Position numbers and translations under genes: made by a program. Source: Anaerolineales bacterium (GTDB taxonomy: Bacteria > Chloroflexota > Anaerolineae > Anaerolineales > E44-bin32). From it: DNA of 64,000 nt. Of the stretch, positions 18,523-64,000 are shown one piece after another. The notes under the pieces were generated by a model. It searched no databases and was not told the origin of the DNA. It saw only the letters and a list, made by a program, of their open reading frames with translations. The stretch is from contig JARGGH010000018.1 of NCBI GenBank assembly GCA_029210945.1, forward strand, positions 148-64,147, in the 5' to 3' direction. Within the stretch, counting starts at the first letter, position 1, and every line of letters begins with the position of its first letter.

Positions 18523-18523
18523 C

Positions 18524-31717: not shown

Positions 31718-32722
31718 TCAGTTATGCGGGCTGAAGGTGTCTACAAGCAGTTTTACATCCCCGCCGACCGGGTAGAGGATCGGGGAGGTCGCGCCGTTAT
31801 CCAGATACTCCTGAACCTTCGCCCGCGCCTGTTCCGGCGTTCCCGAGGCGGTGATCCTGGTGACCAATTCGTCGGGCACAAGGTGCTTTGCACGCTGAAT
31901 CTGCTCGTGCGTGGCCGGCCAGCCAAGAATCGACTGGATTTCATCGACCACACTCTGGTCCACCTCGCTGGCCTTGGCGATGTGCGGCTGCTGGGCCAGA
32001 TACTGTGTGAGCAGTTCGCGGCTGGTGTCGAGCGCCTTAGCCTCATCTTCATCCACCGAACAAACCACAAGCTGAGGCCGGTCGAGATCATCGATCCGGC
32101 GCCCGGCTTTCTTTGCGCCCGCTTCCAGCCGGTCCATCGCCTGCAGGTTGTAGCTCGGCGGGACGCAGTAGTTGAGCACAGCTCCATCTGCGATTTCGCC
32201 GGTCAACTCCATCATCTTGGGGCCTGTCGCCCCGATATAGATGGGGACATTGCGTGGCTCCTTGCGACCGTGCACGACGTCTAATTCGATGCCTTCAACA
32301 TCGTGGAATTCGCCGTGAAAGGTGACCTGCTCCATGTTCAGCAGCCGGCGCAGGACCTCAACGGTCTCGCGCATGGCGGTCAGCGGTTTGCGGCGGTCGA
32401 TGCCGACGTTCTTAGCCAACGGATCCCACCACGCCCCGATGCCGCAGATAATCCGGTCGGGAGCCAGGTCGTCCAGCGTGAGGAACGTTGCCGCTAACAA
32501 TCCAATATTGCGCGTCCAGTTGTTGATCACGCCCGACCCCACCTTGATCCGTTCGGTGACTGCGGCGTAGGCTGCCATCGGTACAATTGCATCGCGGACG
32601 AGCCTGGATTCCGCCTGCCACACCGCTTCAAAGCCTTTCTCCTCAGCATAGCGAGCGTAATCCAGCTCATCTCTCAGATCATGGGCATCCTGCAGATAAA
32701 GCGCTACTCGTTCGAGACTCAT
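31718..32722 (-). CDS. LLM-class (luciferase-like), probably F420-dependent, Mer-like reductase
   Basis: [40 protein letters not shown]; overlaps cofC by 4 nt. Confidence 0.9.
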
Positions 32723-47169: not shown

Positions 47170-47187
47170 CGATTTCATCCTTCCCAA

Positions 47188-49447: not shown

Positions 49448-50495
49448 CAGCCAGCGCCTTCCCTCCTCTGGATCCAAAAATACCCAGTTGGCGATAGTCC
49501 CCGAACAGCAGGACAAGCAGGACCATGACGCTGGTCAGAATCCCTCCAAGCGAAGAATGCAGCTGTGTTCTCAATTGGAGCGAGATGCTTCCACTTAACA
49601 CCGCCGAGAAAAAGAACGCGACAAACGGCACCAGCACAACCCGGAAGAGCGCAAGCATAACCACCAGGAGCGCCAGGAAACCGATGCCTCCTGAAATGCT
49701 CTGGCGAAGACTGTCGAACCAACTCAGCACGCGCACAGAGCCACCCAGACCAGCCAATGCTCCGCAGAACATCATCGCCAAGATCATCTCGCGTTCGCTC
49801 GACACCCCGAGCAAGAAGGCTGATTTCGGATTGCGCCCCAGAGCATCCAACTTCAGCCCCCAGTAGGTCCCGCGTAAGATGAAGTAAACTGCAGCCAGCG
49901 CGCCAAGTGTGAGCGCGATCGAAAGCGGGCTTAAACGCGAAACGCCAAGCAGCGGGAACAGCGCTTTCTCCGGGAAAGGAACGGTGCCACGGAACGTTCC
50001 ACCTTCAGGCGGCTGCCATGGCCCCGAGATGAGATAGTTTGTAAAGATGATTGCGATGTTGTTGAGCGCAAGCCCGCCGAAAATTTCATGCACCCCACCC
50101 CGGGTCTTAAAGATCGCGACAACGCCAGCCCATAGAGCACCGGCTGCCATCGCCACGAGGATCTCAGCGACGAGCAGGATCGGGCGCGGGGCGTCGAATC
50201 GAAGCGCCAGCCAGCTGGACGCGACGGCGCCCATCACGATTTGCCCCTCCACACCGATGTTCCAGAGCCCAGCCGTGAACGCCACCACAAGACCCGCGGC
50301 GGCGAGCGTTAACGGCACCCAGAACGCAGCCACGCTGAGCACCTTGGCTTCAGTGCCAAAAGCCCCTTGAAGCAATGCGCCAAACCCTTCGAACGGTGAG
50401 ACTCCAAAAAGGAGCAGCAGACCGCTTGTGATGACTAATGCGCCCAGGACGGGCGCCAGCGGCCAGAGTCTTCTCAGCCATGCGCGCCCGGTCAC
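49440..50495 (-). CDS. Nucleoside-type ABC transporter permease
   Basis: GLWNIGVEGQ; multiple TM segments. Confidence 0.92.
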   Translation of the reverse strand: MTGRAWLRRLWPLAPVLGALVITSGLLLLFGVSPFEGFGALLQGAFGTEAKVLSVAAFWVPLTLAAAGLVVAFTAGLWNIGVEGQIVMGAVASSWLALRFDAPRPILLVAEILVAMAAGALWAGVVAIFKTRGGVHEIFGGLALNNIAIIFTNYLISGPWQPPEGGTFRGTVPFPEKALFPLLGVSRLSPLSIALTLGALAAVYFILRGTYWGLKLDALGRNPKSAFLLGVSSEREMILAMMFCGALAGLGGSVRVLSWFDSLRQSISGGIGFLALLVVMLALFRVVLVPFVAFFFSAVLSGSISLQLRTQLHSSLGGILTSVMVLLVLLFGDYRQLGIFGSRGGKALADE

Positions 50496-51955
50496 AACTC
50501 GCCCCCGATCATATGGCCCAATTCGTCGGTTGTCGTTTGATCGGCTGTGACGATCCTGGACATCTGACCTCCGGAAAATGCTGCGATGCGGTCGCTTCGC
50601 TCGATAATTTCATCCAGGTCGGCGGAGAAAAAGATGATCCCGGCCCCCTCGGCAGCGCGTTGGAACAGCACCTGCCAGATCCACTCTGCGGAACGCACAT
50701 CGAGACCGCGCGTGGGATGCTCTAACAATATCAGCCGGGCTGACTTGCGCAGCAACGCGAGCAGCGCGCGTTGTTGGTTCCCTCCGGATAATTCTTCAAC
50801 CCTCGAGGTCGATTGGCCGACGATCTGGTACTCATCTATGCGTTCTTCTGTCAACTGCTGGTAGCGTTCACGCTGGATGACAAATCCATGCTGCGGCTCT
50901 GCCAGCACGAAATGGTCAGTAAGGCTCAACCCCTCGACCAGTCCTTCCTCCAGGCGCCCAGAAGGCATGTAAGCCACACCTTCCTCCCGGCGCTTGTGGT
51001 ACCCAAACCTGGTCATATCCCGCTCTTCGATGATGATCTTGCCGCTCTCGGCCTCGACCAATCCAGCACACGCTCGCAGCAGCAACTGCTGGCCGCTCCC
51101 CTCTAACCCCGCAAGGCCAAGCACCTCGCCGGCATGCAGCTCCAGATTCAGCGGACCGACAAGAATACGTCCATCGGAAAGCTGCAGGTCCTGCAGCTGC
51201 ATGATCGTATGCTCACGAATGTATGATGCACGCTCTGTCCGTTTGGGAAGCTCCTCAAACATCAGCGAAACGAGGCTCTGTTTCGTGGCCGGCAGAGTGA
51301 CTCCACCGACCTTCCTGCCACGCCGCAGAACATAGACCTCGTCACAGAGTTCCTGGACCTCAGACAGTTTGTGTGAAACAAGGATGATGATCTTGCCATC
51401 TTTCCCAGCGAGCTTCTGCAGTGAATTGAAGAGCTGTTCTTTCTGGTCGGCGCTGATGCCGGTTGTAGGTTCATCGAGAATCAACAGGTCCGCGCCAAGT
51501 GATAAAAGCCGAATGAGTTCAAGCTGCTGTCTCTCACCGAGCGAAAGTGTGTCGATATAGGCGCGCGGGTTCACTTCAAAGCCGACCGTGCTCGCAAATG
51601 CGGTCAGTTCCTCCTCCGCCTTCCCCAGATCAACAGCCAGCGCCCCGCTGCGACCGAGGACGTAGTTCTCCACTGTCCGCATGCTGGGCACATCCAGGGG
51701 ATCCTGGTAAATCATGCCGATCCCTGCCGCCAGCGCGTCGGCGGGCGAAAAGAACGATCTATCTGTCCAATCAATTACGATCGTGCCATGATCAGGCTTA
51801 TGATAGCCAGAGAGGACCTTCATTAACGTCGTTTTTCCGGCACCGTTTTCGCCCAGCACGCCGTAGATCTTGCCAGGCTCGAACTCCAATGTGATGCCAT
51901 CATTGGCTTTCACATCTCCAAAGTGTTTGTGGATATTTTGAAGCTGAATATGCAT
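50492..51955 (-). CDS. ABC transporter ATP-binding protein (tandem NBD)
   Basis: GENGAGKT, LDEPT, LSGGNQQ. Confidence 0.94.
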   Translation of the reverse strand: MHIQLQNIHKHFGDVKANDGITLEFEPGKIYGVLGENGAGKTTLMKVLSGYHKPDHGTIVIDWTDRSFFSPADALAAGIGMIYQDPLDVPSMRTVENYVLGRSGALAVDLGKAEEELTAFASTVGFEVNPRAYIDTLSLGERQQLELIRLLSLGADLLILDEPTTGISADQKEQLFNSLQKLAGKDGKIIILVSHKLSEVQELCDEVYVLRRGRKVGGVTLPATKQSLVSLMFEELPKRTERASYIREHTIMQLQDLQLSDGRILVGPLNLELHAGEVLGLAGLEGSGQQLLLRACAGLVEAESGKIIIEERDMTRFGYHKRREEGVAYMPSGRLEEGLVEGLSLTDHFVLAEPQHGFVIQRERYQQLTEERIDEYQIVGQSTSRVEELSGGNQQRALLALLRKSARLILLEHPTRGLDVRSAEWIWQVLFQRAAEGAGIIFFSADLDEIIERSDRIAAFSGGQMSRIVTADQTTTDELGHMIGGEL

Positions 51956-51976
51956 AACGCCGGTAGGATCCAATCC

Positions 51977-52007
51977 GAGGGGAGAGCGTCATAGACGCTC
52001 CCCCCTC
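51977..52007 (-). terminator. Stem-loop downstream of BMP gene
   Basis: GAGGGGAGAGCGTC-ATA-GACGCTCCCCCCTC inverted repeat. Confidence 0.7.
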
Positions 52008-52030
52008 AGGTTATTGAGGTGTGATCCGAA

Positions 52031-53236
52031 CTATTTGCTCGGGCCTTCCATACCTTCTAGAAGCTGGGGCAGATACCAGATCTGCTGGCCGGTAGCAACT
52101 TCACCCTCCTCAAGATAGGTCGTCCCATCCTGAAGATTGAGGGGGCCTTTCCACACGACAACGTCGCCGGAGGCCATACCATCGATGAAGGTCTCAAGAT
52201 CCGCTTTCCACTCGTCCGTCAGGCCGGGTCCGTGAATCCAGCCAATCGGTGTCTTGGTGCGGTCATCGAGCGCGTCCCATGCAGCTTTGTTCCATTCCCA
52301 CTCCTGCTCCCAGGATCCAGCCTCAACCGCGCTGGCGGTCTCAAGATAGTCAGGACCCCAATTAAAGTAGGGGACACCCAGGCAGATCTCGGGTTTTTCG
52401 TCACAGGCGCCGACGAAGTCGTACGGCACTGCGAAGACGCGTTCACCTTGATCGGCGCGCTGGCCGCTCACTACGATCGCTTCCGTGGTATCGATCCCGC
52501 TCAGGACGACATCCGCGCCGGAATCGATAAAGTTCGTTGTGACCTCGGTGGGATCCAGGGTCACGCCAGGGATATTGAACCAGAATCCGATCCACGTCAC
52601 GGTGTACTCCAGATCATCGGGATCCATGCCACGGAACTCATCATAGCAGTAACGCGCGCCGAGATAGGCTGAGGCCGCCAGGCGCCGCGTCTCGAAATTG
52701 ATCAGCGGTCCGAGATAGGCCAGCTTGCCGGTCTCGGTTGCAAGGGCGGCCGCGCACCCGGCAACCGCTTTCATGTCGGGCATCCGTCCCATGATATTGC
52801 CAAGGTTTGGCGGAGCTTTTCCAGCATCTTGTCCTTCTGCCCAGGCATCATCACCCGAAATGCTGATGAAGGTGACCTCTGGATATTTCTCGGCCGCACC
52901 GAGAGTGTCCTCCTCAAATTCGTCAGAGGTCGTAAATACCAGCTGTGCCCCATCGGCGACCATGTCGTCCACAACGCCCTCCAGCGTCGCTTCGGGTTTA
53001 TCAGCCGGGTTCAGGCTTTCAAACACGATCATGCGTGCGCCAGGCATGTTCTCCTCGACATACTGCCCGCCCTCATAATGCGCCTGGCTCCAGCCACGAT
53101 CATTCTTCGGCCCAACGAGCACTACGCCGAAAACAAACTCCTGCTCCTCTTCCACCGTGCCGCCAGCGCAGGCGGAAAGCAAGAGCGCAGGGATGATCAG
53201 CAGTGCCATCAATCGAAATAGGAATCTCTTAGACAT
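52031..53236 (-). CDS. BMP-family ABC substrate-binding lipoprotein
   Basis: LSAC lipobox, DRGWSQAH, WIGFWF, FNWG. Confidence 0.92.
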   Translation of the reverse strand: MSKRFLFRLMALLIIPALLLSACAGGTVEEEQEFVFGVVLVGPKNDRGWSQAHYEGGQYVEENMPGARMIVFESLNPADKPEATLEGVVDDMVADGAQLVFTTSDEFEEDTLGAAEKYPEVTFISISGDDAWAEGQDAGKAPPNLGNIMGRMPDMKAVAGCAAALATETGKLAYLGPLINFETRRLAASAYLGARYCYDEFRGMDPDDLEYTVTWIGFWFNIPGVTLDPTEVTTNFIDSGADVVLSGIDTTEAIVVSGQRADQGERVFAVPYDFVGACDEKPEICLGVPYFNWGPDYLETASAVEAGSWEQEWEWNKAAWDALDDRTKTPIGWIHGPGLTDEWKADLETFIDGMASGDVVVWKGPLNLQDGTTYLEEGEVATGQQIWYLPQLLEGMEGPSK

Positions 53237-53414
53237 GTGATGCTTCTCCTGTTCGGATAAAGTCGTTCGGAGTTCTCTCCTGCATCCAGATCAATCTCTA
53301 TGTTGACGACCACCTCCTCCACTGGTTCCACACTGATGCCCAATCCCGAGAAAGATCGGTAGAGAACCGCTTCTGCCAGTGTCAACGGTCAGCCATCTTG
53401 TTCGCTCCACTGGG

Positions 53415-54371
53415 TCAGTGTTTCTCCTCACGGGCATAAGGAAGCCCTAAAGCGGCGGGAGCACCCAATCGCTTACTGATCGCCTCCCACCACGTGATGA
53501 TCACCAGCACAACAATCGTAAAGATATACGGCATCATGTTCAGAAATGGCGCCGGGATGGTCGTACCCGCCGCCTGCATGCGGAATTGGATCGCGTTGAT
53601 ACCGCCGAAGAGCATCGCGCCGATCACCGCCCGGAGCGGATCCCAGGTGGCGAAAATGACCAGCGCGATCGCGATCCAACCGCGCCCTCCGGTGATATTA
53701 TCCGCCCACCCCTGCAGGTAGCCCAGCGATAAATGGGCGCCCGCGACGCCCATCAACATGCCGCCGAAGATTGTGTAAATGTAGCGCGTGCGGATCACGG
53801 GAACACCCATCGCATCAGCAGCCAGCGGCTTTTCGCCAACCGCCCTCAAATGCAGCCCGGGCTGGGTCCTGTAGAGGAAGAACCAGAGCAGCGGGAGCAG
53901 CAAATACAGACCGTAGGTCAGCACATCCTGATTGAAGAAGGAAGGGCCCAGGATCGGAATATCGCTCAAGAGCGGCAGCGGGGTGCGCACAAATTTGGGG
54001 CCCTGGAGCCCGACCATGGTTGTGCCGCCCGGACCCAATCGCTGGCCCATGAAGCTTGCCAGGCCGGTGCCAAAGATGGTCAGCGCCAGACCGCTCACCA
54101 CCTGATCGGCACGCATCGTATTCGACAGGAAGGCGTGAATCAGCGCCAGTAATCCACCCACCAGCACGGCACCCAGCAGCCCGATCCACGCACTCCCGCT
54201 GTGGTATGAAACGGCGAATGCAGTCGCCGCGCCCATCATCATGATGCCTTCCACCCCCAGGTTGAGGATGCCGACCCGCTCGGTATAGATCTCACCCAGA
54301 GTCGCGTAAAGCAACGAGGTTCCCGCACGGATAGTAATTATGAGGATGGATACAATCAATGCTTCTGTCAT
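53415..54371 (-). CDS. Nucleoside-type ABC transporter permease
   Basis: GEIYTERVGILNLGVEG, GRGWIAIALVIFATW, PAALGLPY. Confidence 0.93.
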   Translation of the reverse strand: MTEALIVSILIITIRAGTSLLYATLGEIYTERVGILNLGVEGIMMMGAATAFAVSYHSGSAWIGLLGAVLVGGLLALIHAFLSNTMRADQVVSGLALTIFGTGLASFMGQRLGPGGTTMVGLQGPKFVRTPLPLLSDIPILGPSFFNQDVLTYGLYLLLPLLWFFLYRTQPGLHLRAVGEKPLAADAMGVPVIRTRYIYTIFGGMLMGVAGAHLSLGYLQGWADNITGGRGWIAIALVIFATWDPLRAVIGAMLFGGINAIQFRMQAAGTTIPAPFLNMMPYIFTIVVLVIITWWEAISKRLGAPAALGLPYAREEKH

Positions 54372-55456
54372 GAGAGCTCGTCTGCGGCAGCGGGCTCAGA
54401 GGGTCGGAGCAGACGGATGCGGTAGTTGACAAAGATCCAGCCCCCCAGCACGAAGAACAGGATCGCACCCTGCAGCACCAGCGCCACAGCGGCCGGAGTT
54501 TGAAGCGCGATCTGAATTTGATCGCCGCCAACAAGCAGCGCGGCCATAAAGAAGCCGACAAACAACACCGCCCAGGGGTTCAAATTCGCCATCCACGCGA
54601 CGATGATGGCGGTGTAGCCGTACCCGACGGTCAAGCCCTGGTAGAGACGGCGAGCAATCCCGGAGACCTCCGCCATCCCGGCTAGGCCAGCCAACCCTCC
54701 TGAGAGCAGCATGACGAGCAGGATATTTTTGCCGATGTTGATCCCGGTGTAGCGGGCGGCGCGCTGATTCTCACCGATAACCCGGATTTCGTATCCCCAG
54801 CGACTGCGGCTGAGAACGAACCAGACGATGAAGGCGGCGATAATCGCAAAAATGATCCCGAGGTGCACTCGCCCGACAAGGCGCGGCAGGATCGCCTCCG
54901 GAGGAAAGGGCGCCGTTCCAGGGAAACCATAGCCATCAGGATCCCGCCAGGGCCCGAGGTACAGGTATTCCACCATTAGGATGGCGATGTAATTCATCAT
55001 CAACGTGGTCAGGATTTCATTTACGCCGATGAACGCCTTCAGCAAAGCGGGTATTAAGCCCCAGATCGCGCCGGCGAGCATACCTAAAAGGACCATGGTG
55101 GGTATCGTCAGCGCACCAGGAAGCGAATCGCTCAGGAAGAGCGCAACGTAGGTCGCGGCGATGCCGCCCATCGCGAGCTGACCCTCCGCCCCGATATTCC
55201 AGAAAAGCATCCGGAAGGCAATCGAGACGCTCAGCCCAGTGAGCATCAATGGTATCGCCTTGACGAGCGTTTCTGTCAGCGCATACTGCGATCCAAGCGA
55301 ACCCACCGCCATCACGCGGTAAGCTTCCAGCGGGTTGACACCAAAAGCCAACAAGATCAGCGAGCCAAAGAGCAGCGCCAGGATGAATGAGATAATCGGG
55401 ACGAGGACAGCCGCGCGACGTGAGCGTGAGAGGCGCTTTTCAAAAACGATATTCAT
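54368..55456 (-). CDS. Nucleoside-type ABC transporter permease
   Basis: WNIGAEGQ, NEILTTLM, GYGYTAI. Confidence 0.93.
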   Translation of the reverse strand: MNIVFEKRLSRSRRAAVLVPIISFILALLFGSLILLAFGVNPLEAYRVMAVGSLGSQYALTETLVKAIPLMLTGLSVSIAFRMLFWNIGAEGQLAMGGIAATYVALFLSDSLPGALTIPTMVLLGMLAGAIWGLIPALLKAFIGVNEILTTLMMNYIAILMVEYLYLGPWRDPDGYGFPGTAPFPPEAILPRLVGRVHLGIIFAIIAAFIVWFVLSRSRWGYEIRVIGENQRAARYTGINIGKNILLVMLLSGGLAGLAGMAEVSGIARRLYQGLTVGYGYTAIIVAWMANLNPWAVLFVGFFMAALLVGGDQIQIALQTPAAVALVLQGAILFFVLGGWIFVNYRIRLLRPSEPAAADELS

Positions 55457-57015
55457 CGTGGCCTCCCATCATCTTCTATCGATGGGGTTTGAGAGATCCG
55501 TTTCTCGCCCGCCATCATCAACCCGAGTTCTTCTGTATCTGCCTCTTCATCGTCCACGATGCCCATAATCTCGCCCTCGTAGAAGACCGCGATGTGATCG
55601 GAAAGCTGCATCAATTCGTCCAGCTCCTCGGAGATCAAAAGGATCGCTGCGCCGTTATCGCGCTGCTCCAGAAGCGTCTTCCGGACCGCCTCGGTCGCGC
55701 CGACATCCAACCCCCGGCTCGGGTGCACCGCTACCAACATGCCGCTGCTTGCATCAATCTCTCGCGCCAACACGACTTTTTGCTGGTTTCCGCCGGATAG
55801 CAAGCGCGTGTCGGTCTGAATTGACGGTGTGGTGATATTGAAACCTTTCACAAGATTGCGCGCAAAATTTCGCAGCGCCTCATAATTGAGCAGCGGCCCG
55901 CTTGCCAGGGGTGGCCGCCGGTACGCCTTCATCGCCAGGTTATCGGAGACGGGCAGGTTAGGGACTAATCCCACCCCCAGACGATCACCAGGGATATGGC
56001 TTACACCAGTCTCGATCGCCTGGCGCGGCGTGCAGTTGGTGATCTCAACATCATTGACATAGATTGATCCGCCCGTCACCGGTCGCAAGCCGGTGATCAC
56101 CTCGGCGATTTCACGCTGCCCGTTGCCGGCTACGCCGGCGACACCCAGAATCTCGCCGCTGCGGATGGAAAAAGACATGCCTTTCAAGGCTGGCAGACCC
56201 TTATCGTTGAGCGCTCTAACGCCCTCGACGACGAGCACATCCGGCCCTTTCTGGCATGGTTCCTTTTCGAGGCGGAAGAGCACTTCGCGACCGACCATCA
56301 GGCGCGCTAGTTCGGATTTGGTCGTCTCGCTCGTCTTGGGCGTGGCGACGACCTCACCACCGCGAAGCACGGTCACCCAATCGGAAAACCTCATGACCTC
56401 GTCAAGTTTATGGGTGATGAAAATGATGGCCTTGCCTTCGGCTGTCATCTGGCGCAGGATATTGGCGAGTTCCTGCGATTCCTGGGGCGTTAGAACCGCC
56501 GTCGGTTCATCAAGAATGAGCATATCCGCGCCGCGATAGAGCAGTTTGAGGATCTCAACCCGCTGTTGTTCTCCAACCGACAACTGCCAGATAAATGCTT
56601 TTGGATCGACGTTTAAGTGATAACGTTTGGATAATTCCCGCACCTGCTCCTCAACCCGCTCGTGGTCGATCACGAACCGGGCTGGCCGCTGACCAAGAAT
56701 GACGTTTTCAGCGACGGTCAGGCTTTCTACCAGCATGAAATGTTGATGGACCATGCCTATGCCATGGTCAATTGCATCCCGTGGCGAGTTGAAGCGGACT
56801 CGATTTCCATTCAGAAGAATGAACCCTTCTTCCGCCTGGTAAAGGCCCGCCAGGACGTTCATAAGCGTGCTTTTCCCGGCGCCGTTCTCCCCCAGAAGCG
56901 CGTGAATGTGGCCGGGGGTTACCGTGAGGTCCACATCCCGGTTTGCCACCACTCCTGGAAACCGCTTGGTGATACCACGCATCTCGACTGCGCTGATCGT
57001 CTGTGATTCGCTCAT
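55453..57015 (-). CDS. ABC transporter ATP-binding protein (tandem NBD)
   Basis: GENGAGKS, LSVGEQQR, LDEPTAVL, LSGGNQQK. Confidence 0.95.
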   Translation of the reverse strand: MSESQTISAVEMRGITKRFPGVVANRDVDLTVTPGHIHALLGENGAGKSTLMNVLAGLYQAEEGFILLNGNRVRFNSPRDAIDHGIGMVHQHFMLVESLTVAENVILGQRPARFVIDHERVEEQVRELSKRYHLNVDPKAFIWQLSVGEQQRVEILKLLYRGADMLILDEPTAVLTPQESQELANILRQMTAEGKAIIFITHKLDEVMRFSDWVTVLRGGEVVATPKTSETTKSELARLMVGREVLFRLEKEPCQKGPDVLVVEGVRALNDKGLPALKGMSFSIRSGEILGVAGVAGNGQREIAEVITGLRPVTGGSIYVNDVEITNCTPRQAIETGVSHIPGDRLGVGLVPNLPVSDNLAMKAYRRPPLASGPLLNYEALRNFARNLVKGFNITTPSIQTDTRLLSGGNQQKVVLAREIDASSGMLVAVHPSRGLDVGATEAVRKTLLEQRDNGAAILLISEELDELMQLSDHIAVFYEGEIMGIVDDEEADTEELGLMMAGEKRISQTPSIEDDGRPR

Positions 57016-57041
57016 CGGTTGTTTCATCCGCTGTTAGATGT

Positions 57042-57074
57042 GGTTCCCTCCGGCCTCATCGGCCGGAGGGAACC
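57042..57074 (-). terminator. Stem-loop downstream of BMP gene
   Basis: Perfect 14-bp stem GGTTCCCTCCGGCC/GGCCGGAGGGAACC. Confidence 0.75.
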
Positions 57075-57087
57075 TGGAAAACGAAAC

Positions 57088-58191
57088 CTACTCTTCTAGC
57101 GTTCCAACCACGCCTTCGACGAACCAATCCATGCTGAGCATATCGCCATCGCTCATGCACTCGCCGTCGGCGATCTTGACAGAACCATCCTGAGCGTTGA
57201 TCGGTCCGCAGAACACATCCCATTCGCCAGAGACGATGCGGGTGTGTTCGCTCTCAACCTTCGAGGCGACATCTGCAGGTACGCGCGGGCTCAGCTCAGC
57301 CAGCTCGACGACACCGTCCGCCAGGCCGCCCCAGAACTGGTGCGTCTCCCAGCTTCCGTCGATGACCTTGCCGACCGTGTCGACGTAGTAGGTGCCCCAG
57401 TTCCAGATGGGGCTGGTCAGCACGGTGTCGCCGACGAACTGTGCCATGTCAGAGTCATAACCGATGCTCAGCGCGCCGCGCTCCTGGGCGGCCTTCTGCG
57501 GCTCGGTCGTATCCTGGTGCTGGGCGATGATGTCAGCGCCCTCATCCAGGAGTGCCTCAGCGGCTTCGCGCTCTTTCACCGGGTCGTACCAGGTGTTGGT
57601 CCATACAACGCGGACTTCCGCATCGGGGTTTACTTCGCGGACACCAAGCGTGAAGGCGTTGATGCCACGGACAACCTCGGGGATCGGGAAGGCAGCCACA
57701 TACCCGATCAGATTCGCCTCGGTCATGCTGCCTGCCACGAGACCGGAAAGATAGCGCGGCTGATAGATCCTTCCGAAGTACGTGGACATATTCTCAGCAG
57801 TCTTGAACCCGGAGCAGTGCTCAAAGATCACATCGGAGTTCTCTTCCGCCACGGTCAGCGTGGGATCCATGTAGCCAAAGCTCGTCGTGAAAACGACATC
57901 GGCGCCATTGTTGACCACATCGCGAATGGCTTTTTCGGCATCCGGCCCTTCCGGCACATCCGGCACCGTCACGGTTTCAACCTGGTCACCCAGCTCTTCC
58001 TCGAGCATCAGCCGCCCGCGTTCGTGTTCGTAGGTCCAGCCCAAATCGCCGGGCTGTCCGATATAAATGAACGCGACCTTCAGTTCTTCCGATGGTTCTT
58101 CTACTTCAGCCTGCCCACCGCCACAGGCGGTGATCGCCAACGCCAGAACCATCAACAGGGCGGCGCTTTTCCATAACGTCTTCAATGTCAT
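57088..58191 (-). CDS. BMP-family purine/nucleoside-binding lipoprotein
   Basis: ITAC lipobox, DLGWTYEH, TSFGY, PIPEVVRGINAF, WYDP, QHQD. Confidence 0.94.
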   Translation of the reverse strand: MTLKTLWKSAALLMVLALAITACGGGQAEVEEPSEELKVAFIYIGQPGDLGWTYEHERGRLMLEEELGDQVETVTVPDVPEGPDAEKAIRDVVNNGADVVFTTSFGYMDPTLTVAEENSDVIFEHCSGFKTAENMSTYFGRIYQPRYLSGLVAGSMTEANLIGYVAAFPIPEVVRGINAFTLGVREVNPDAEVRVVWTNTWYDPVKEREAAEALLDEGADIIAQHQDTTEPQKAAQERGALSIGYDSDMAQFVGDTVLTSPIWNWGTYYVDTVGKVIDGSWETHQFWGGLADGVVELAELSPRVPADVASKVESEHTRIVSGEWDVFCGPINAQDGSVKIADGECMSDGDMLSMDWFVEGVVGTLEE

Positions 58192-58320
58192 TCCGAACTC
58201 CTCTCCTCGATAAGATACGTGTTTACGTCGTGATTTCCGCTATCGGCTTGCACTTCACTCATAATCAACTCCAGATTGACACCTCCTGATTGTTTGACAT
58301 TCCTTATTGTCTTGCCAGTT

Positions 58321-59268
58321 TCATGGGACGATGAGCGTCCCTGTTTCACCTTTCAACGCGCGTTCGATGTTCTCCGGGTTGGTGATCAGCGCCTGCCTGC
58401 CGCCTCTCTCCAGGAAACCAAGGATGGCGCGGACCTTCGGCTCCATGCTGCCCTTGCCGAAGTGGCCTTGTTCCAGATACTCTTTGGCCTCGGCCAGCGT
58501 CATGCGATCAAGCCATTCCTGGTTGGGCTGGTTGAAATTAATCGCAACTTTCTCGACGGCTGTTGAGATTAGCAAGAGATCGGCATTTAGGCTAGTCGCC
58601 AGGAGTGCAGATGCGAAATCTTTATCGATCACCGCCTCCACACCGAGCAGCTCACCGCCCTCGCCCTCCACGACCGGGATACCGCCACCCCCCACGCTGA
58701 TGACCACGAAGCCATCACGTACAAGCGTGCTGATTGCGTCCGCCTCGATGATCCGCACCGGCAGCGGGGATGGGACAACCCGCCGCCAGCCGCGGCCTGC
58801 ATCCTCCACGACTGCCCAGCCCTCCGCCTCTTTGCGCTGCATGGCAGTGCTCTCATCCATGAACGCCCCGATCGGTTTGGAGGGGTTCTTAAAAGCGGGG
58901 TCGTGCTTATCCACAAGCACCTGCGTCACGACCGTGGCCGCCAGCTTGTCCATCGAGCGCTTCTGGAATTGCCCGTACAGCGCGCGCTGGAACATATACC
59001 CGATGGCTCCCTGAGTGTCTGCCCCGCAGTAATCCAACGGAACGGGGTGCAGTTCGTGCAGCGATAGCTCGGCCCGGCGCAGAATAAACCCCACCTGTGG
59101 GCCATTTCCGTGCGTGACGATCACCTCCCAGCCCTGCTCGATCATCCCGGCGATGTGCTCCATCGATTGGCTCGCCGCTTCGTACTGATCCGGGATCGCC
59201 TGGTGGTCCTTATCCTTAATCAGTGAGTTGCCACCCACCGCGACCACGGCAACTTTTTTCTCACCCAT
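58321..59268 (-). CDS. arcC: Carbamate kinase
   Basis: AVGGNSL, THGNGPQVG, PSKPIG, RRVVPSP, EAVIDKD, GSMEPKV. Confidence 0.96.
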   Translation of the reverse strand: MGEKKVAVVAVGGNSLIKDKDHQAIPDQYEAASQSMEHIAGMIEQGWEVIVTHGNGPQVGFILRRAELSLHELHPVPLDYCGADTQGAIGYMFQRALYGQFQKRSMDKLAATVVTQVLVDKHDPAFKNPSKPIGAFMDESTAMQRKEAEGWAVVEDAGRGWRRVVPSPLPVRIIEADAISTLVRDGFVVISVGGGGIPVVEGEGGELLGVEAVIDKDFASALLATSLNADLLLISTAVEKVAINFNQPNQEWLDRMTLAEAKEYLEQGHFGKGSMEPKVRAILGFLERGGRQALITNPENIERALKGETGTLIVP

Positions 59269-59292
59269 AATTTCTGCTTCTCCTCCTGAGAT

Positions 59293-60270
59293 TTACATTG
59301 TCAAAGCCATCACGGCTTTTTGTGCGTGCAGTCGATTTTCGGCTTCATCAAAGACGACGCTCTGCGGCCCGTCCAACACTTCGGAGGTGACCTCGATATC
59401 CCGGTCCGCCGGGAGCGGGTGCATGTAAATCGCGTCATCCTTGGCGAGCGACATCAGTTTCTGATCGGCGATCCAATCTTTGTACTGGTCCTGGATTTTC
59501 TTGCCCTCATCCTGGTCACGCGTTGTCAGCAACGGCCCCCAGGATTTCGCATAAACGACGTCGGCGCCTTCGACGGCGTCCTGCATGTCGTCCACGACCT
59601 CGAATGAGGTCTTGTGCTTCTCAGCCTGCTCGCGGGCCTGTTCCATGATTTCCGGCATGAGCTCGAATTCCTTCGGGTGCGCCAGCGTCACGTCCAGTCC
59701 GAAGCGCGGCATCTGCAGGATCAGGGATTGCGGCACCGAAATCGGCTTCAAGTACGAAGACGCATAAGCCCACGAGACGACGATTTTTCGGCCGCGCAGA
59801 TCGCGACCCTTCTTCTCCATGATCGTCATCAGGTCCGCCAGGCACTGGTGCGGATGGTAGTACTCGCACTGCATGTTCAGCACGGGCACCCGCGAAGCCT
59901 CCGCCACCAGATTCAGGTAGCGGTTGCCGATCCCCCAGTCGACATGCCGGATGGCGATCCCGTCGAAGTAGCGCCCGAAGATCTCGCCCATCTCGGTTTC
60001 CGTATCGCCATGGGAGATCTGGGTCGTGCGCGACTCGATGAACGCCGCGTGCCCGCCGAGCTGCGCCATGCCGGCTTCGAACGAGCCGCGCGTGCGCGTG
60101 CTCGAGAAGAAGAACAGCATCGCCAGCACCTTGTCACGCAAGTAGGCGTGCTCTTCGCCGAGCGCCCGTTTGCGCTTCAAATCAAATGCGACATCCAGGA
60201 TCGTCTCGACCTCTTCTTTCGTGAAATCCAGGTCGCCGATCAGATCCCTTCCTTTTAGATAGGTTTGCAT
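59293..60270 (-). CDS. Ornithine carbamoyltransferase-like (AOTCase/YgeW-related) transcarbamylase
   Basis: SSTRTR, HPHQCLAD, YAKSW, MHPLPADR, FDEAENRLH; lacks the OTCase SMG loop. Confidence 0.88.
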   Translation of the reverse strand: MQTYLKGRDLIGDLDFTKEEVETILDVAFDLKRKRALGEEHAYLRDKVLAMLFFFSSTRTRGSFEAGMAQLGGHAAFIESRTTQISHGDTETEMGEIFGRYFDGIAIRHVDWGIGNRYLNLVAEASRVPVLNMQCEYYHPHQCLADLMTIMEKKGRDLRGRKIVVSWAYASSYLKPISVPQSLILQMPRFGLDVTLAHPKEFELMPEIMEQAREQAEKHKTSFEVVDDMQDAVEGADVVYAKSWGPLLTTRDQDEGKKIQDQYKDWIADQKLMSLAKDDAIYMHPLPADRDIEVTSEVLDGPQSVVFDEAENRLHAQKAVMALTM

Positions 60271-60327
60271 GGGTTCGTAGTCTCCTTATAGTTCCTGATA
60301 GTCAAATCCCCTGCTGCTTTTCAGACA

Positions 60328-60427
60328 GGGCACCCCGTCACTCCGGCACCCGGGCACCCAGGGAGGGCAGGGCTACCCCTTCGAAAACCCACCCGGAATT
60401 ACCCGGTGACCGAGTGACCGAGTGACC
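60328..60427. repeat. Intergenic 8-bp periodic inverted repeats
   Basis: GGGCACCC CGTCACTC CGGCACCC GGGCACCC ... CCGGTGAC CGAGTGAC CGAGTGAC. Confidence 0.65.
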
Positions 60428-60462
60428 TCCTCAAAACGTCAATTTCAAAGGCTCTTTCGCGG

Positions 60463-61416
60463 TCACTCCATCGCCCCCAGAATCGACGCCAGGATGCCCA
60501 TGCGCATGACCACGCCGTTGAAGGCCTCCTGCCAGTAGCGCGACCAGCGCGTGATGTCCACGTCGGGCGGGATCTCGTCCATGCGCGGCAGCGAGTGCAG
60601 CAGGATCGCGTCCGACTTCGCTTTCGTCTCCAGCAGCTCGCGCGTGATCTTGTAGTTCGCCGGCGTCATGCCGACATCCTCGCCGCGCTCATCGCGCGAC
60701 TTGGTGTAGTCCGGCTGCACGACCGGCTCAACCAGGATCACGTCTGCGTCTGCAATCGCCTCTTCGACGTGTTCGGCTTCCTTGTAATCCAGGCTGTAGC
60801 CTTTGATTTCCTCTTTGAATTCGTCGGTGAGGGACATATCGGGAGGTGAAACAAACGTGATCGGGCAGTCAAACTGGGTCAGACCATGCGCCAGCGAATG
60901 CATCGTGCGCATGCGCATGTCCCCGACGGCCAGCCAGCGCAGGCCGTCGATGCGGCCTTTTTCCGTCAGCACGGTGTACAGGTCGGTGAGGATCTGCGTC
61001 GGGTGCTCGCCCCAGCCGTCGCCACCGTTGATGATCGGCACGGAAGCCCATTTCGCGGCTTCGTGCGGCGCACCCTGCTGGAAATGGCGCATCACGATCA
61101 CATCGCCGTAGAACTCGAGCATCTTGACCGTGTCTTTGATCGATTCCTGGTAGAAATCCCCGGCGCGGGTCATCTTCGCATCGGCGAAGCCGGTCACCTG
61201 CCCGCCAAGGCGGATCATACCTGCCTCGTGCGCCAGCCGTGTGCGCGTGCTCGGCTGGTAGAACGCGGTGACGAGTGTTTTGCCCGCCAGCAAGTCCGTG
61301 TTCCTCCGGTCCCGGGCAATCGGCGCCAGACGGTCGCAGATCTCAAACAAACGGAAGAATTCGTTTCGTTCGAAATCCTTTAGTGAAAGTATGTCCCTTC
61401 CCATAAAACTTCGCAT
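60463..61416 (-). CDS. Aspartate carbamoyltransferase-like transcarbamylase (divergent)
   Basis: FYQPSTRTR, ESIKDT, INGGDG..EHPTQ, HSLPRMDEI, NGVVMRM. Confidence 0.88.
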   Translation of the reverse strand: MRSFMGRDILSLKDFERNEFFRLFEICDRLAPIARDRRNTDLLAGKTLVTAFYQPSTRTRLAHEAGMIRLGGQVTGFADAKMTRAGDFYQESIKDTVKMLEFYGDVIVMRHFQQGAPHEAAKWASVPIINGGDGWGEHPTQILTDLYTVLTEKGRIDGLRWLAVGDMRMRTMHSLAHGLTQFDCPITFVSPPDMSLTDEFKEEIKGYSLDYKEAEHVEEAIADADVILVEPVVQPDYTKSRDERGEDVGMTPANYKITRELLETKAKSDAILLHSLPRMDEIPPDVDITRWSRYWQEAFNGVVMRMGILASILGAME

Positions 61417-61479: not shown

Positions 61480-62241
61480 TCAGACTCCTTGCACCCTCCG
61501 TACAATAGAAAACCGGAACGTCCCCGGAAGAAAATAGCTGAATGAATGGTCGATCAGATCACCTTCTCTGGTTCGAAGCCAGGCTTCCATGCAGAGCAGA
61601 ACATCGCCACGCTGAATCCCTAGTTCGCGCGCCACCTCCGCCGAGGCGGAAACTGCGGTGATCTCGGTGAGCGAGGTGTTTACGCTCGGCTTTTGCTTGC
61701 GCACGAGAAGATCGAGGATTGAACCCTTGAAGCGCCTCTGCTGGACCTGCTCCGGAAGGTAATGCTCGGGGAGCGAATCGACAAGGTAAGCAATCGGTCG
61801 TTCTTCTGTGGAGATGACTCTCGAGACATCGACCACCCGGGCGCCGTTCTCGAGGGCGAAACGCTCGATCTCCAGATCGGTCGCCTCCCGCTCCTCGATC
61901 TCCAGCTCACCCATCTCGACCTGCAGCCCAATCCGCCCGGCGAGCGTCTCGAGGCTCTCGAGTTTCTCTATGCCCGTTTCAATCACATGTGGTGGGTGGG
62001 TCACCATCGTGCCGACACCCTGCTTGCGCACGATCACACCTTGCCCCTCAAAAACCCGCATGGCTTCACGCAACGTGGCGCGCGAGACGCCAAGCTGACG
62101 CGCCAATTTCGGCTCCGACGGCAGGTAGCTACCCGGCTCAACATCCTTGATAACGGCTGCCAGCGCGTCGGTCGTCCTCTGGTAAAGGGGGCGTGAATCT
62201 TCGCGACCGGACATGACTCGCTTCATCTCAACCCTGTCCAT
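61480..62241 (-). CDS. GntR (HutC/UTRA)-family transcriptional regulator
   Basis: LPSEPKLARQLGVSRATLREA...GVGT HTH plus UTRA-like C-terminus; exact start uncertain. Confidence 0.93.
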   Translation of the reverse strand: MDRVEMKRVMSGREDSRPLYQRTTDALAAVIKDVEPGSYLPSEPKLARQLGVSRATLREAMRVFEGQGVIVRKQGVGTMVTHPPHVIETGIEKLESLETLAGRIGLQVEMGELEIEEREATDLEIERFALENGARVVDVSRVISTEERPIAYLVDSLPEHYLPEQVQQRRFKGSILDLLVRKQKPSVNTSLTEITAVSASAEVARELGIQRGDVLLCMEAWLRTREGDLIDHSFSYFLPGTFRFSIVRRVQGV

Positions 62242-62244
62242 CAC

Positions 62245-64000
62245 TCAATCGGCTTCGATCGGTATGACTTGAAACGCGTTTACATCAACAAGGCCTTTAT
62301 CCGAGATCCGCAGATCGGGGATGACGACCAGCGCCAGCAGGCTGAGCTGCATGTTGGCGTTGTTGAGCGTGCAGCCACAATCCCGGAATGCCTCAAGGAG
62401 AGCTTCGGCTTTGTCCGCTACAACTTCGGCGCGTTCATTGGACATCAACCCAGCGATGGGGAGTTCAACCTCCGCGCGAACCTCGCCATCTTTGATCACG
62501 ACCTGCCCGCCTCGAATCTCCGCCAGGCGGTTTGCTGCCAGCGCCATCGCCTCTTCATCCGATCCAACCACAATCATGTGGTGGGAGTCGTGCGCCACGG
62601 TTGATCCGATGGCGCAGTTCGCGTCCAGACCGAAACCCTGAACGAGCGCGACCTGCACCTCCCCGGTGCCCTTGTGACGTTCGACGAGGGCGACCTTGAG
62701 CAGATCTCTGTCCAGATCGATCGGCAGCTCACCAGCGACCACCGGAACGCTTAGCCGCAGATGCCTGGTGGGCGCCTGGTTCTCGACGATGCCGATCACG
62801 TTAGCGATCACTTCATCACCGGCTGATGTGGGTATCTTGAAATCGCCGGCGGTTAAAGCCCTCCCCAGGTTGACTGAATTTTTCACCTCTTCCGGGTAGG
62901 AGAACGTGGGCAGGTCGATGACCAGCTTGCCATCCCGGGCGACGACCTCACCACGCGCGATCACCATCTGCACATCGAGCGCTTCCAGATCACCGACCAG
63001 CAAGATATCCGCATAGCGGCCCGGCGCAATCTGACCCACGTCCCGGCTGACACCGAAGTGTTCCGCCGTATTCAGCGTCGCCATCTGGATGGCAGTGACC
63101 GGCTCGGCTCCCTGTTCGATCGCGTGCCGGACAACACGGTCCATGTGCCCTTCGTTGACCAGCGTGCCCGAATGAGAGTCGTCGGTGACAAGGATGAAGT
63201 GGCGTGGATCCATGCCCATCTCGGTCACCGCCTTGATCTGGGAGGCTACATCGTGCCAGGCCGAACCCAGACGCAGCATGACCTTCATCCCCTGCCGGAC
63301 ACGGGCGACCGCATCCTCCAAACGTGTACCTTCATGATCGTCCTCCGGCCCTCCGGCGACGTAACCGTGGAACGGCAACCCGAGGTCGAGCGAGGCGTAG
63401 TGTCCTCCGATCACTTTACCGGCCTGGCGCGTGCGGGCCATCTCGGCGTGCATCTTGTCATCGTTGAAATAGACCCCCGGGAAGTTCATCATCTCGCCCA
63501 GGCCGATGATCCCGGGCCAGCTCATCGCCTGCTCGACTTCGTCCGGCCCGATCGCGGCACCGGGGGTCTCCAGGCCTGGAGCGGACGGGACGCAGGAGGG
63601 CATCTGAACCCAGACATGCATTGGCTGCAGGGCAGCTTCATCGACCATCAAGCGGACACCCTTCAAGCCAAACACATTGGCAATCTCGTGCGGGTCGACA
63701 AACATGCCCGTCGTGCCGCGCGGGAGCACGGCGCGGACAAACTCGGTGATCGTGACCATGCCAGATTCAATGTGCATGTGACCATCGAGTAAGCCGGGGA
63801 CGATGAAACGGCCCTCGGCCTCGATGATCTTCGTGTCCGGCCCGATGGTGTGGCCGGCATCCTCACCCACGAAAGCCACACGGCCGCCCCGAACCGCCAC
63901 GCTGATTCCGGGCAGTATCTCGCCGCTCTGAACACAGACCCAGCGGCCGTCGCGCACCAACAAATCGGCGAAGGCGCGACCCATCGCGACGTCCACCAGT
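62245..64000 (-). CDS. ade: Adenine deaminase (5' end outside window)
   Basis: PGLLDGHMHIES, DPHEIANV, LGEMMNFPG, DDHE, TDD, TVAHDSHH. Confidence 0.94.
   Translation of the reverse strand, partial: LVDVAMGRAFADLLVRDGRWVCVQSGEILPGISVAVRGGRVAFVGEDAGHTIGPDTKIIEAEGRFIVPGLLDGHMHIESGMVTITEFVRAVLPRGTTGMFVDPHEIANVFGLKGVRLMVDEAALQPMHVWVQMPSCVPSAPGLETPGAAIGPDEVEQAMSWPGIIGLGEMMNFPGVYFNDDKMHAEMARTRQAGKVIGGHYASLDLGLPFHGYVAGGPEDDHEGTRLEDAVARVRQGMKVMLRLGSAWHDVASQIKAVTEMGMDPRHFILVTDDSHSGTLVNEGHMDRVVRHAIEQGAEPVTAIQMATLNTAEHFGVSRDVGQIAPGRYADILLVGDLEALDVQMVIARGEVVARDGKLVIDLPTFSYPEEVKNSVNLGRALTAGDFKIPTSAGDEVIANVIGIVENQAPTRHLRLSVPVVAGELPIDLDRDLLKVALVERHKGTGEVQVALVQGFGLDANCAIGSTVAHDSHHMIVVGSDEEAMALAANRLAEIRGGQVVIKDGEVRAEVELPIAGLMSNERAEVVADKAEALLEAFRDCGCTLNNANMQLSLLALVVIPDLRISDKGLVDVNAFQVIPIEAD

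Follow-up and report, generated by a model that had tools for sequence, protein, structure and literature searches.

The three adjacent genes considered here lie in a 64,000-nucleotide stretch of DNA (hereafter the window) on contig C9 of an Anaerolineales metagenome-assembled genome (GCA_029210945.1; 2.69 Mb, 98 contigs, 79% complete), and they encode an aspartate carbamoyltransferase (ATCase)-like protein, CT1, a second transcarbamylase, CT2, and a carbamate kinase (gene arcC). We propose, with a probability of about 60%, that CT2 and CT1 phosphorolyse both ureido groups of 2,3-diureidopropionate, which would yield two ATP per urate instead of one. The substrates, ATP yield and regiochemistry that we propose build on the gene identities, residue changes, gene context and complementary distribution of CT1 and the hydrolase YgeY described below. 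The known reductive urate pathway proceeds via 2,3-diureidopropionate and employs one transcarbamylase, YgeW, and one hydrolase, YgeY (Li et al. 2025; Liu et al. 2025). A preliminary description of the window had stated this pathway in the same terms and had delimited the three genes exactly as our open reading frames (ORFs) do, in agreement with the family matches.

CT1 and YgeY alternate beside CT2

Homologues of XdhD/YgfM, SsnA, HyuA, YgeW and YqeA (33-52% identity to the E. coli proteins) are all found on contig C9. E. coli YgeY and YgeX gave no tblastn match at E<1e-8 in this 79%-complete genome, whose best scores on the corresponding family models were 26 bits for YgeY (cut-off 321.5) and 45.6 bits for YgeX (cut-off 276), and YgfK gave only a GltD-like partial match on contig C55. 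The M20 hydrolase family (PF01546) has nine matches in the genome and none on contig C9, so that the preliminary description was right in finding no YgeY in the window. Family searches of the genome also returned neither a uricase nor an OHCU (2-oxo-4-hydroxy-4-carboxy-5-ureidoimidazoline) decarboxylase. The locus corresponds to the F420-type form of the reductive urate pathway described for Chloroflexota, in which an F420-dependent enzyme of the luciferase family takes the place of YgfK (Li et al. 2025, section 9). A reading as pyrimidine catabolism, prompted by the dihydropyrimidinase-type HyuA, was rejected: the genome has no match to the PF01180 dehydrogenase family, and the gene context is purine throughout.

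The CT2 loci of four genomes of the same order that lack CT1 (G036, G028, G038 and G027) were compared with the window. The genes of G036 run 8-oxoguanine deaminase, adenine deaminase, GntR, M20 protein, CT2 and arcC, which is the order of the window with the M20 gene in the slot of CT1, and G028 has the same arrangement. In G038, the M20 gene stands just upstream of GntR-CT2-arcC, which are followed by the same two pyridoxal phosphate (PLP) enzyme genes, glycosyltransferase gene (GT2, family 2), 166-aa gene and HyuA gene as in the window. YgeY is thus found at the operon slot of CT1 in three of the four loci. That the M20 protein is a true YgeY is indicated by its score of 466.6 on TIGR03526 (cut-off 321.5; G036, the one protein scanned) and by its 40-44% identity to E. 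coli YgeY.

A census was made of 151 genomes drawn evenly from the order, the queries being CT1, CT2 and the YgeY just described (E<=1e-90). It found CT1 in 70 genomes, YgeY in 65 and CT2 in 116, CT2 being present in every genome with CT1 (70/70). The 116 CT2 genomes divide into 51 with CT1 only, 41 with YgeY only, 19 with both and five with neither, and of the 35 genomes lacking CT2 none holds CT1 (0/35) and five hold YgeY (5/35). The five genomes with neither protein comprise two that carry only a CT2 paralogue (~52% identity), two assemblies of 59% and 81% completeness, and one of 83% completeness with only a fragment of CT2. Of the 19 genomes with both proteins, 17 have the genes of YgeY and CT1 directly side by side, and two have them on different contigs. 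Within the window's own family, 10 of the 12 genomes have CT1 and none has YgeY (0/12). SsnA occurs in nearly all relatives, several of which lack CT1. Because nearly every CT2 has a partner, because the side-by-side genes look like an intermediate, and because the operon slot is the same, the pattern resembles a non-orthologous displacement. From the census and the shared slot, we propose that CT1 most likely carries out the step of YgeY by phosphorolysis.

A second, paralogous cluster was observed at L117:612-13965 (G164:C61). It contains a xanthine dehydrogenase (XDH)-family gene, two SsnA/8-oxoguanine-deaminase-like amidohydrolases (28-30%), a luciferase-like enzyme (50% to that of the window), a YgeY-like M20 protein (36%) and a CT2 paralogue (55%), and may represent a parallel pathway for another oxopurine or an analogue.

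CT1 is a pseudo-ATCase

The motifs of CT1 and CT2 were read from the translations and from HMMER alignments to solved ATCase and ornithine carbamoyltransferase (OTCase), and all those claimed for the two proteins in the preliminary description were recovered. CT1 keeps the carbamoyl-phosphate motifs, i.e., S56-T59 (STRTR), R110-H111 and H138-P-T-Q141 (HPTQ). Its 80s loop reads T-R-A-G-D-F-Y-Q-E-S and lacks the Ser80 and Lys84 of ATCase (S..KKGE). At the ATCase site T-R229-x-Q231-x-E-R234, CT1 has V-E-P-V-V-Q-P-D-Y, the P-V-V-Q-P-D part of which spans positions 229-234 when aligned without gaps to 1ML4 and E. coli PyrB; the equivalents of Arg229, Gln231 and Arg234 are lost. The HPLPR of ATCase is HSLPR in CT1. 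The α-carboxylate arginine, R167 in E. coli, is kept as R170, and acidic residues (D87, E230 and D236) occur in the loops that lost Lys84, Arg229 and Arg234. We infer from these acidic residues and the lost basic ones that the site would fit a neutral or cationic side chain instead of the carboxylate of aspartate.

On the ATCase family models, CT1 scores over the cut-off of TIGR00670 by 3.5 bits (240.5 versus 236.95) and under that of NF002032 (211.6 versus 263). Its AlphaFold2 model (pLDDT, the predicted local confidence score, 92.6) has 1ML4 as the top Foldseek match (E 1.3e-33). Among representatives clustered at 50% identity, CT1 belongs to a compact clade, beyond which lies a wide range of proteins of 34-49% identity, many of them sharing a T-R-A/S-G-D...E loop and lacking TRxQxER. 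A maximum-likelihood tree of 79 rows was computed by a quick IQ-TREE search with support from the SH-aLRT branch test only; it omits four fragment-like rows and 25 of the 95 full-length representatives, and was built without the transcarbamylases of N-acetylornithine (AOTCase), N-succinylornithine (SOTCase), putrescine (PTCase) and 2,3-diaminopropionate (DPTCase), Rxyl_2847 and the Nocardioides pseudo-ATCase. In this tree, CT1 and the two representatives closest to it (73% and 69% identity) fall within a 33-row clade of ATCase-like proteins lacking RxQ (SH-aLRT 93), and E. coli PyrB falls with the Chloroflexota PyrBs in a separate clade, also of 33 rows (SH-aLRT 87). With STRT and HPTQ kept, HPLP altered, RxQ lost and a position outside the genuine ATCases, CT1 belongs with the pseudo-ATCases described by Barba et al. 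2013.

Gene neighbourhoods were compared in 80 related loci, the closest of at least 534 genome stretches encoding CT1 relatives. Over these loci, the median identities (CT1, 86%; CT2, 79%; arcC, 64%) gave an impression of special conservation of CT1, which was dropped because the loci had been picked by their similarity to CT1. In the evenly drawn census, the identities between genera of the same family are 72-74% for CT1 and 77-84% for CT2. The CT1 of the window's genus is nearer to the CT1 of other families (85-89%) than to that of the other genera of its own family (72-74%), and CT2 displays no such inversion, which suggests a lateral transfer of CT1 within the order. Apparent CT1-CT2 fusions in G168 and G152 were discarded, as their frames of 604 and 486 aa span 200 and 100 N, respectively, i.e., scaffold gaps.

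Two congeners carry a CT1 paralogue (46% identity, same T-R-A-G-D loop) at L111:4030-6021 (G021:C67) and L112:3656-5647 (G004:C52), directly upstream of a second carbamate kinase that is 75% identical to the one in the window. The operon further encodes an arginine-deiminase-superfamily protein with a C_GCAxxG_C_C domain, a metallo-β-lactamase-fold protein, a zinc alcohol dehydrogenase, a class-III aminotransferase and an aldehyde dehydrogenase, and looks like another ATP-yielding route of guanidino or ureido catabolism.

CT2 is a pared-down YgeW-type enzyme

CT2 keeps SSTRTR and HPHQ, and differs from OTCases by A-K-S-W-G-P-L-L in place of D-x-W-A-S-M-G and by HPLPA in place of HCLPA. It is under every NCBIfam cut-off, both for the ornithine-type models (TIGR00658, 255 versus 280.85; NF001986, 270.6 versus 306) and for the YgeW models (TIGR03316, 186.8 versus 500; NF005538, 194.2 versus 453). 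The following lines of evidence point to CT2 being a minimal YgeW-type transcarbamylase. First, E. coli YgeW has its reciprocal best match of this genome in CT2, at 34% identity and 189 bits, compared with 130 bits for ArgI. Second, CT2 has both signatures of the knotted group, a proline-rich loop and an extended 120s loop (Shi et al. 2015): S-W-A-Y-A-S-S-Y-L-K-P-I-S-V-P-Q of CT2 aligns with T-W-A-Y-S-P-S-Y-G-K-P-L-S-V-P-Q of YgeW, and its 120s loop, like that of YgeW, is longer than those of ArgI and ArgF. The two proteins also have the stretches N-x-Q-C-x-x-x-H-P-x-Q and P/A-K-S-W-A/G-P in common. Third, five of the six residues proposed to bind the second substrate of YgeW (Q160, K270, D124, S200, K203 and L331; Shi et al. 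2015) are conserved in CT2, D124 being replaced by V or C in the CT2 orthologues. Fourth, the tree unites CT2 with E. coli YgeW (SH-aLRT 97) in a clade that excludes ArgI and ArgF.

CT2 is 70 residues shorter than YgeW and lacks its extra terminal helices. The first 14 aa and the C-terminal tail of YgeW have no counterpart in CT2, nor do an 11-aa insertion and some 16 aa of the 240s loop. In the AlphaFold2 model of CT2 (pLDDT 83.6) the proline-rich loop is poorly modelled (residues 171-174 under 50), and Foldseek ranks the knotted AOTCase 3KZM (1.7e-29) and the unknotted OTCase 1A1S (2.1e-29) equally.

The label "OTCase-like", given to CT2 in the preliminary description, therefore has to be abandoned in view of the best match, the loops, the five conserved residues and the tree, and the accompanying argument, that albizziin is a short homologue of citrulline, loses its basis with a YgeW-type CT2. 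As to phylogeny, the tree bears out the separation of CT1 from the PyrB clade and corrects the placing of CT2, which groups with YgeW and not with ArgI or ArgF.

A proposed double phosphorolysis

We propose the following pathway. The steps leading to diureidopropionate would be those of the published pathway, with the F420 enzyme as the reductase. CT2, acting like YgeW, would phosphorolyse one ureido group of 2,3-diureidopropionate, and CT1 would phosphorolyse the remaining one, a step that in Clostridium and E. coli falls to the M20 hydrolase YgeY. Both carbamoyl phosphates would be turned into ATP by the one carbamate kinase, and either of the two PLP enzymes conserved with the module would then probably deaminate the 2,3-diaminopropionate; of these two, the threonine-synthase-like enzyme is a candidate stand-in for YgeX. 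ATP was obtained from diureidopropionate in vitro with YgeW and YqeA (Liu et al. 2025). For the removal of the first ureido group, UacY (hydrolytic) and YgeW (phosphorolytic) have been presented as alternatives that differ in energy strategy (Li et al. 2025); by analogy, YgeY and CT1 would represent the choice between hydrolysis and phosphorolysis at the second one.

Which group is attacked by which enzyme is a matter of published disagreement. According to Liu et al. 2025, the 3-ureido group is the target of YgeW and the 2-ureido group that of YgeY; in the reverse scheme of Li et al. 2025, YgeW removes the 2-ureido group to give albizziin, and the Percudani commentary lists this regiochemistry as unresolved. 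Within the double phosphorolysis, we think it more likely than the reverse that CT2 cuts the 3-ureido group first, and that CT1 then acts on 3-amino-2-ureidopropanoate, because CT1 has kept the α-carboxylate arginine (R170), because its characterised relatives, ATCase and ureidoglycine transcarbamylase (UGTCase), act on the amino or ureido group of the carboxylate-bearing carbon, and because D87, E230 and D236 are acidic. A minority share of our confidence in the double phosphorolysis goes to the opposite regiochemistry, with CT2 removing the 2-ureido group to form albizziin and CT1 its side-chain 3-ureido group. This alternative draws on the detection of albizziin from HyuA, YgeW and phosphate, and of pyruvate from albizziin, YgeY and YgeX (Li et al. 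2025), from which the substrate of YgeY, and hence that of CT1, would be albizziin; it is opposed by R170, by the mode of action of the characterised relatives and by the other order given in Liu et al. 2025, the commentary calling the matter open. The preliminary description had CT1 act first, on the α-ureido group: under our favoured scheme the group assignment stands and the order does not. In other words, if Liu et al. are right its regiochemistry holds with the order reversed, and if Li et al. are right CT1 acts on the side-chain ureido group.

The wider form of our proposal, to which we give a little less than even odds, is that CT1 would be a new catabolic carbamoyltransferase of ureido acids derived from diaminopropionate, specific for the ureido group on the carboxylate-bearing carbon, that many Anaerolineae would gain two ATP per urate by substrate-level phosphorylation, and that the large T-R-A-G-D group, at present labelled aspartate carbamoyltransferases, would consist of catabolic ureido-acid phosphorylases.

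Several points weigh against the double phosphorolysis. First, the activities of CT1 and CT2 are deduced from sequence and gene distribution. Second, the genome being 79% complete, the absences reported above are provisional. Third, 19 of the 116 CT2 genomes have both CT1 and YgeY, so that the replacement is not strict and the two proteins may have distinct substrates; the claim of the preliminary description that a second phosphorolysis provides two carbamoyl phosphates is thus favoured by the alternation of CT1 and YgeY and weakened by their overlap. Fourth, G027 has neither CT1 nor YgeY beside CT2-arcC, its YgeY homologue lying elsewhere in the genome. Fifth, the census genomes are related, not independent, their families are mixed, and the counts are uncorrected for phylogeny. 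Sixth, as CT2 lacks D124 and the extended 240s loop, it may not share the exact substrate of YgeW. Seventh, ATCases act on L-aspartate, unlike the R-configured intermediates of this pathway. The R (D-) configuration of these intermediates was reported by Liu et al. 2025. Eighth, ureido phosphorolysis is thermodynamically unfavourable (Li et al. 2025), so that two such steps in series would need a strong pull by the kinase.

Other possible roles for CT1

CT1 might operate in a route different from that of CT2, for example as a ureidoglycine/allantoate transcarbamylase or on another N-carbamoyl amino acid, and share the kinase with it, while another enzyme would remove the second ureido group. 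The diversity of pseudo-ATCases, one of which is a UGTCase, would fit such a role, as would the 46% CT1 paralogue, which two congeners encode beside a separate arcC in a deiminase/aminotransferase operon unrelated to this locus, and the 19 genomes that kept both YgeY and CT1. We nevertheless find it doubtful for the following reasons. First, CT1 never occurs without CT2 in the census and adjoins it in 71 of the 80 related loci. Second, 51 CT2 genomes have CT1 and lack YgeY, and the conserved module has no other obvious ureido-cleaving enzyme. Third, the genome lacks uricase and OHCU decarboxylase, and its ring-opening enzyme is of the hydantoinase type.

An improbable alternative is that the remaining ureido group leaves albizziin as urea, through a β-elimination catalysed by the cysteine-synthase-fold or the threonine-synthase-like PLP enzyme, CT1 being regulatory or accessory. 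These two fold-type-II PLP enzymes are indeed tightly co-conserved with CT1-CT2-arcC, and one of them would be enough to replace YgeX. However, both PLP genes also occur in the YgeY-type operon of G038, so that they do not explain the absence of YgeY, and CT1 retains every residue that binds carbamoyl phosphate.

As regards a housekeeping role, the genome has only three transcarbamylase genes, the third of which encodes a true ArgF (contig C11; TIGR00658, 407 bits), and no classical PyrB was found in this 79%-complete assembly. CT1 orthologues (82-98% identity) occur in 28 of 40 relatives, and 15 of these 28 also have a second ATCase-type gene (37-40% identity). In G018, which belongs to the same genus, this second gene scores 366 bits on TIGR00670 and lies in a pyrC-pyrB-pyrF/E-x-pyrD operon, none of whose genes was matched in the window genome: the whole pyr operon, not only pyrB, is unassembled or lost there. 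The second ATCases of the relatives, the pyr operon of G018, its complete absence here and the position of CT1 in the tree together argue that CT1 does not owe its presence to being a sole pyrB. The preliminary description had taken neither enzyme for a housekeeping PyrB or ArgF, which agrees with the separate ArgF on C11, with the congener carrying both a pyr operon and a CT1 orthologue, and with the tree; of the two housekeeping genes that it proposed to look for elsewhere in the genome, argF is there and a classical pyrB is not. Classical PyrB-type matches are also missing from 12 of 24 genomes of the same genus, including the closest one (G009, 93% complete), and a lone gene of the orotidine monophosphate (OMP) decarboxylase family is found on contig C2 of the window genome. 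The missing pyr genes reflect either a binning gap or a pyrimidine auxotrophy in part of the genus.

Public records name the CT1 family "aspartate" and the CT2 family "ornithine" or "N-acetylornithine carbamoyltransferase" (named rows among the closest 120 relatives of each), and such annotations may lead metabolic reconstructions to credit genomes wrongly with pyrB or argF. That CT1 is the ATCase of the organism, and CT2 a second ornithine-type enzyme, is accordingly what the records, the TIGR00670 score just over its cut-off and the lack of another ATCase in the incomplete genome would suggest, and it is very improbable given the loss of the equivalents of Arg229, Gln231 and Lys84, the second ATCase-type genes of CT1-bearing relatives, with a true PyrB in G018, the place of CT1 outside the genuine ATCase clade, the true ArgF on C11 and the missing pyr operon.

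Organisation of the locus

Purine-catabolic genes fill the window as one long locus transcribed toward lower coordinates, higher coordinates thus being upstream (Table 1). On the upstream side, a gene for 8-oxoguanine deaminase (NF006055, 678.6 bits; cut-off 532) lies just outside the window on the same contig, and the GntR/UTRA regulator gene is found upstream of CT1 in 57 of the 80 related loci. The carbamate kinase also exceeds the cut-off of NF009007 (402.8 versus 266); it is 52% identical to E. coli YqeA, and is the sole match of YqeA in the genome. One or the other set of Bmp-type transporter genes follows arcC in about 31 of the 80 loci, and the gene of the threonine-synthase-like enzyme, whose best solved relative is the threonine synthase 2ZSJ (164 bits), is immediately after arcC in many loci. 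The 485-aa PLP enzyme, matched by cysteine synthases at no more than 58 bits, is encoded in 21 of the 80 loci. The HyuA-type hydantoinase is 39% identical to E. coli HyuA, and scores 247 bits on the allantoinase model (cut-off 358). The F420 biosynthesis genes cofC, cofD and cofE flank that of the luciferase-like oxidoreductase. Three XDH-family enzymes are encoded downstream of arcC, one of which is the best match of E. coli XdhD (Table 1), together with XdhC, YqeB-like and YqeC-MobA cofactor genes.

Nearly all of the 80 loci are labelled as metagenome-assembled genomes of Anaerolineae or other Chloroflexota, the exceptions being two bins labelled Neomarinimicrobiota and Eisenbacteria; one locus comes from the cultured Ornatilinea apprima P3M-1 and has its genes in the order GntR-CT1-CT2-arcC, as in the window. 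An Rfam scan of positions 57900-62400 gave no match at E<=0.1, and promoter- or terminator-like sites around the genes were not clearly above shuffled expectation.

Several neighbouring genes were observed in passing. The GT2 glycosyltransferase gene, which has no obvious role in purine catabolism, stands between both PLP genes and is kept there in 15 of the 80 loci and in G038. The 166-aa ORF keeps its place between the 485-aa PLP gene and HyuA in G038 and in several of the related loci. Three genes among those of the molybdoenzymes probably serve cofactor maturation of the XDH-family enzymes: one for a DUF6909 protein, one for a YqeC-MobA fusion, and one for a 273-aa protein that has no Pfam match and shares 47% identity with a part of E. 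coli YqeB. A Nudix hydrolase gene overlaps the 3' end of an XDH-type call by about 265 bases, probably because one start codon was called too far upstream.

Table 1. Position, strand and supporting matches of the features of the window (scores in bits, followed by the model cut-off where one applies)
Feature	Position	Strand	Match
CT1, ATCase-like pseudo-ATCase, 317 aa; proposed ureido-acid phosphorylase replacing YgeY	60463..61416	-	Pfam OTCace_N/OTCace
CT2, minimal YgeW-type transcarbamylase, 325 aa; proposed 2,3-diureidopropionate phosphorylase	59293..60270	-	Pfam OTCace_N + OTCace
Carbamate kinase (ArcC/YqeA equivalent), 315 aa	58321..59268	-	TIGR00746 371.3 (358.25)
GntR/UTRA regulator, directly upstream of CT1	61480..62244	-	Pfam GntR + UTRA
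Adenine deaminase	62245..63999	-	TIGR01178 518.4 (472.5)
Two Bmp/PnrA-type ABC transporters (each a binding protein, an ATPase and two permeases)	48458..58191	-	Pfam Bmp, ABC_tran, BPD_transp_2
Threonine-synthase-like PLP enzyme; candidate YgeX stand-in (2,3-diaminopropionate ammonia-lyase)	47188..48453	-	PALP domain
GT2 glycosyltransferase, PgfS/ArnC-like	46222-47187	-	267, under its cut-off
485-aa PLP enzyme, distant cysteine-synthase fold, co-conserved with the module	44742..46199	-	PALP 38.6
166-aa ORF	44133-44633	-	no Pfam or NCBIfam match
HyuA-type D-hydantoinase (hydantoin ring to 2,3-diureidopropionate)	42666..44087	-	TIGR02033 527.1 (393.25)
XDH-type call	38810-41683		
Nudix hydrolase	38188-39075	-	Nudix_N domain
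SsnA amidohydrolase	36818..38173	-	NF005540 503.6 (444); TIGR03314 475.1 (455.5)
Luciferase-like (F420-dependent) oxidoreductase; proposed 2,8-dioxopurine reductase replacing YgfK	31718..32722	-	PF00296 240
YgfM-like FAD subunit	30398-31147	-	40% identity to E. coli YgfM over 105 aa
XdhD-like molybdoenzyme	27405-30398	-	37% identity to E. coli XdhD over 1025 aa
DUF6909 protein	21616-23322	-	753
273-aa protein	18524-19345	-	
YqeC-MobA fusion	17188-18633	-	

Significance and comparison with known systems

If the double phosphorolysis is true, the substrate-level ATP from purine fermentation would be doubled relative to the 2025 pathway, with its one transcarbamylase and kinase, giving the Anaerolineae, which are abundant in sediments and digesters, an energetic reason to scavenge purines. 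The natural swap between CT1 and YgeY could also help to address the published disagreement on the regiochemistry of YgeW and YgeY. Li et al. 2025 raised the balance between flux and energy conservation in the design of uricolytic probiotics, for which CT1 would be a candidate part.

Among the papers listed by full-text literature searches, judged by their titles, the beginnings of their abstracts and the text of the papers cited here, we saw no proposal of a reductive urate pathway with two transcarbamylases, nor of a function for the pseudo-ATCases linked to ygeW; the supplements of Li et al. and Liu et al., which possibly show Chloroflexota clusters with two PF00185 genes, were outside the scope of these searches. 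The parts are of known kinds and their pairing was glimpsed in 2013; the functional reading and the wide distribution are new.

Compared with PyrB, CT1 has the same fold, the carbamoyl-phosphate site and the R167 equivalent (33-39% identity), but it lies outside the pyr operon and the genuine ATCase clade, and its aspartate-binding residues are gone. Like the pseudo-ATCases of Barba et al. 2013, CT1 co-exists with a genuine PyrB in related genomes, and adjoins a carbamate kinase and purine-catabolic genes. Rxyl_2847, a group 1 pseudo-ATCase encoded beside a carbamate kinase, phosphorolyses allantoate, a diureido acid, in vitro to ureidoglycine and carbamoyl phosphate, which provides a biochemical precedent for the reaction proposed for CT1; groups 2 and 3 are not known to have been assigned a function. 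Unlike the context of UGTCase, the window genome has no uricase, and its cyclic amidohydrolase is of the hydantoinase rather than the allantoinase type. CT1 resembles group 2 in adjoining a YgeW-type gene; the group 2 pseudo-ATCase of Nocardioides JS614 adjoins a ygeW homologue, xdhABC and hyuA (Barba et al. 2013). CT1 differs from this group by having P-V-V at the RxQ position (V-Q-P if shifted by two) instead of the motif GX[SC]. It resembles group 3, compared here by published motifs, in HSLP and VXP, in a different context.

DPTCase, of zwittermicin and viomycin biosynthesis (Shi et al. 2015), likewise interconverts diaminopropionate and β-ureidoalanine (albizziin) with carbamoyl phosphate; unlike CT1 (HSLP) and CT2 (HPLP), it is anabolic, OTCase-like and has an HDLP motif. 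The pairs UacY/YgeW and allantoate amidohydrolase/UGTCase show, as proposed here for YgeY and CT1, that a hydrolase and an energy-conserving transcarbamylase with its carbamate kinase are interchangeable. In contrast to the UacY/YgeW pair, the present alternation concerns the second ureido group, a case not found described in the literature searched.

The YgeW-YqeA-YgeY-YgeX module of E. coli and Clostridium differs from the locus described here in the following respects: CT1 stands for YgeY, two other PLP enzymes are present and YgeX is absent, and an F420-type reductase stands for YgfK. The two systems are alike in having XdhD/YgfM, SsnA and HyuA for the upstream steps, a YgeW-type gene beside that of a carbamate kinase, and genes of purine salvage and transport.

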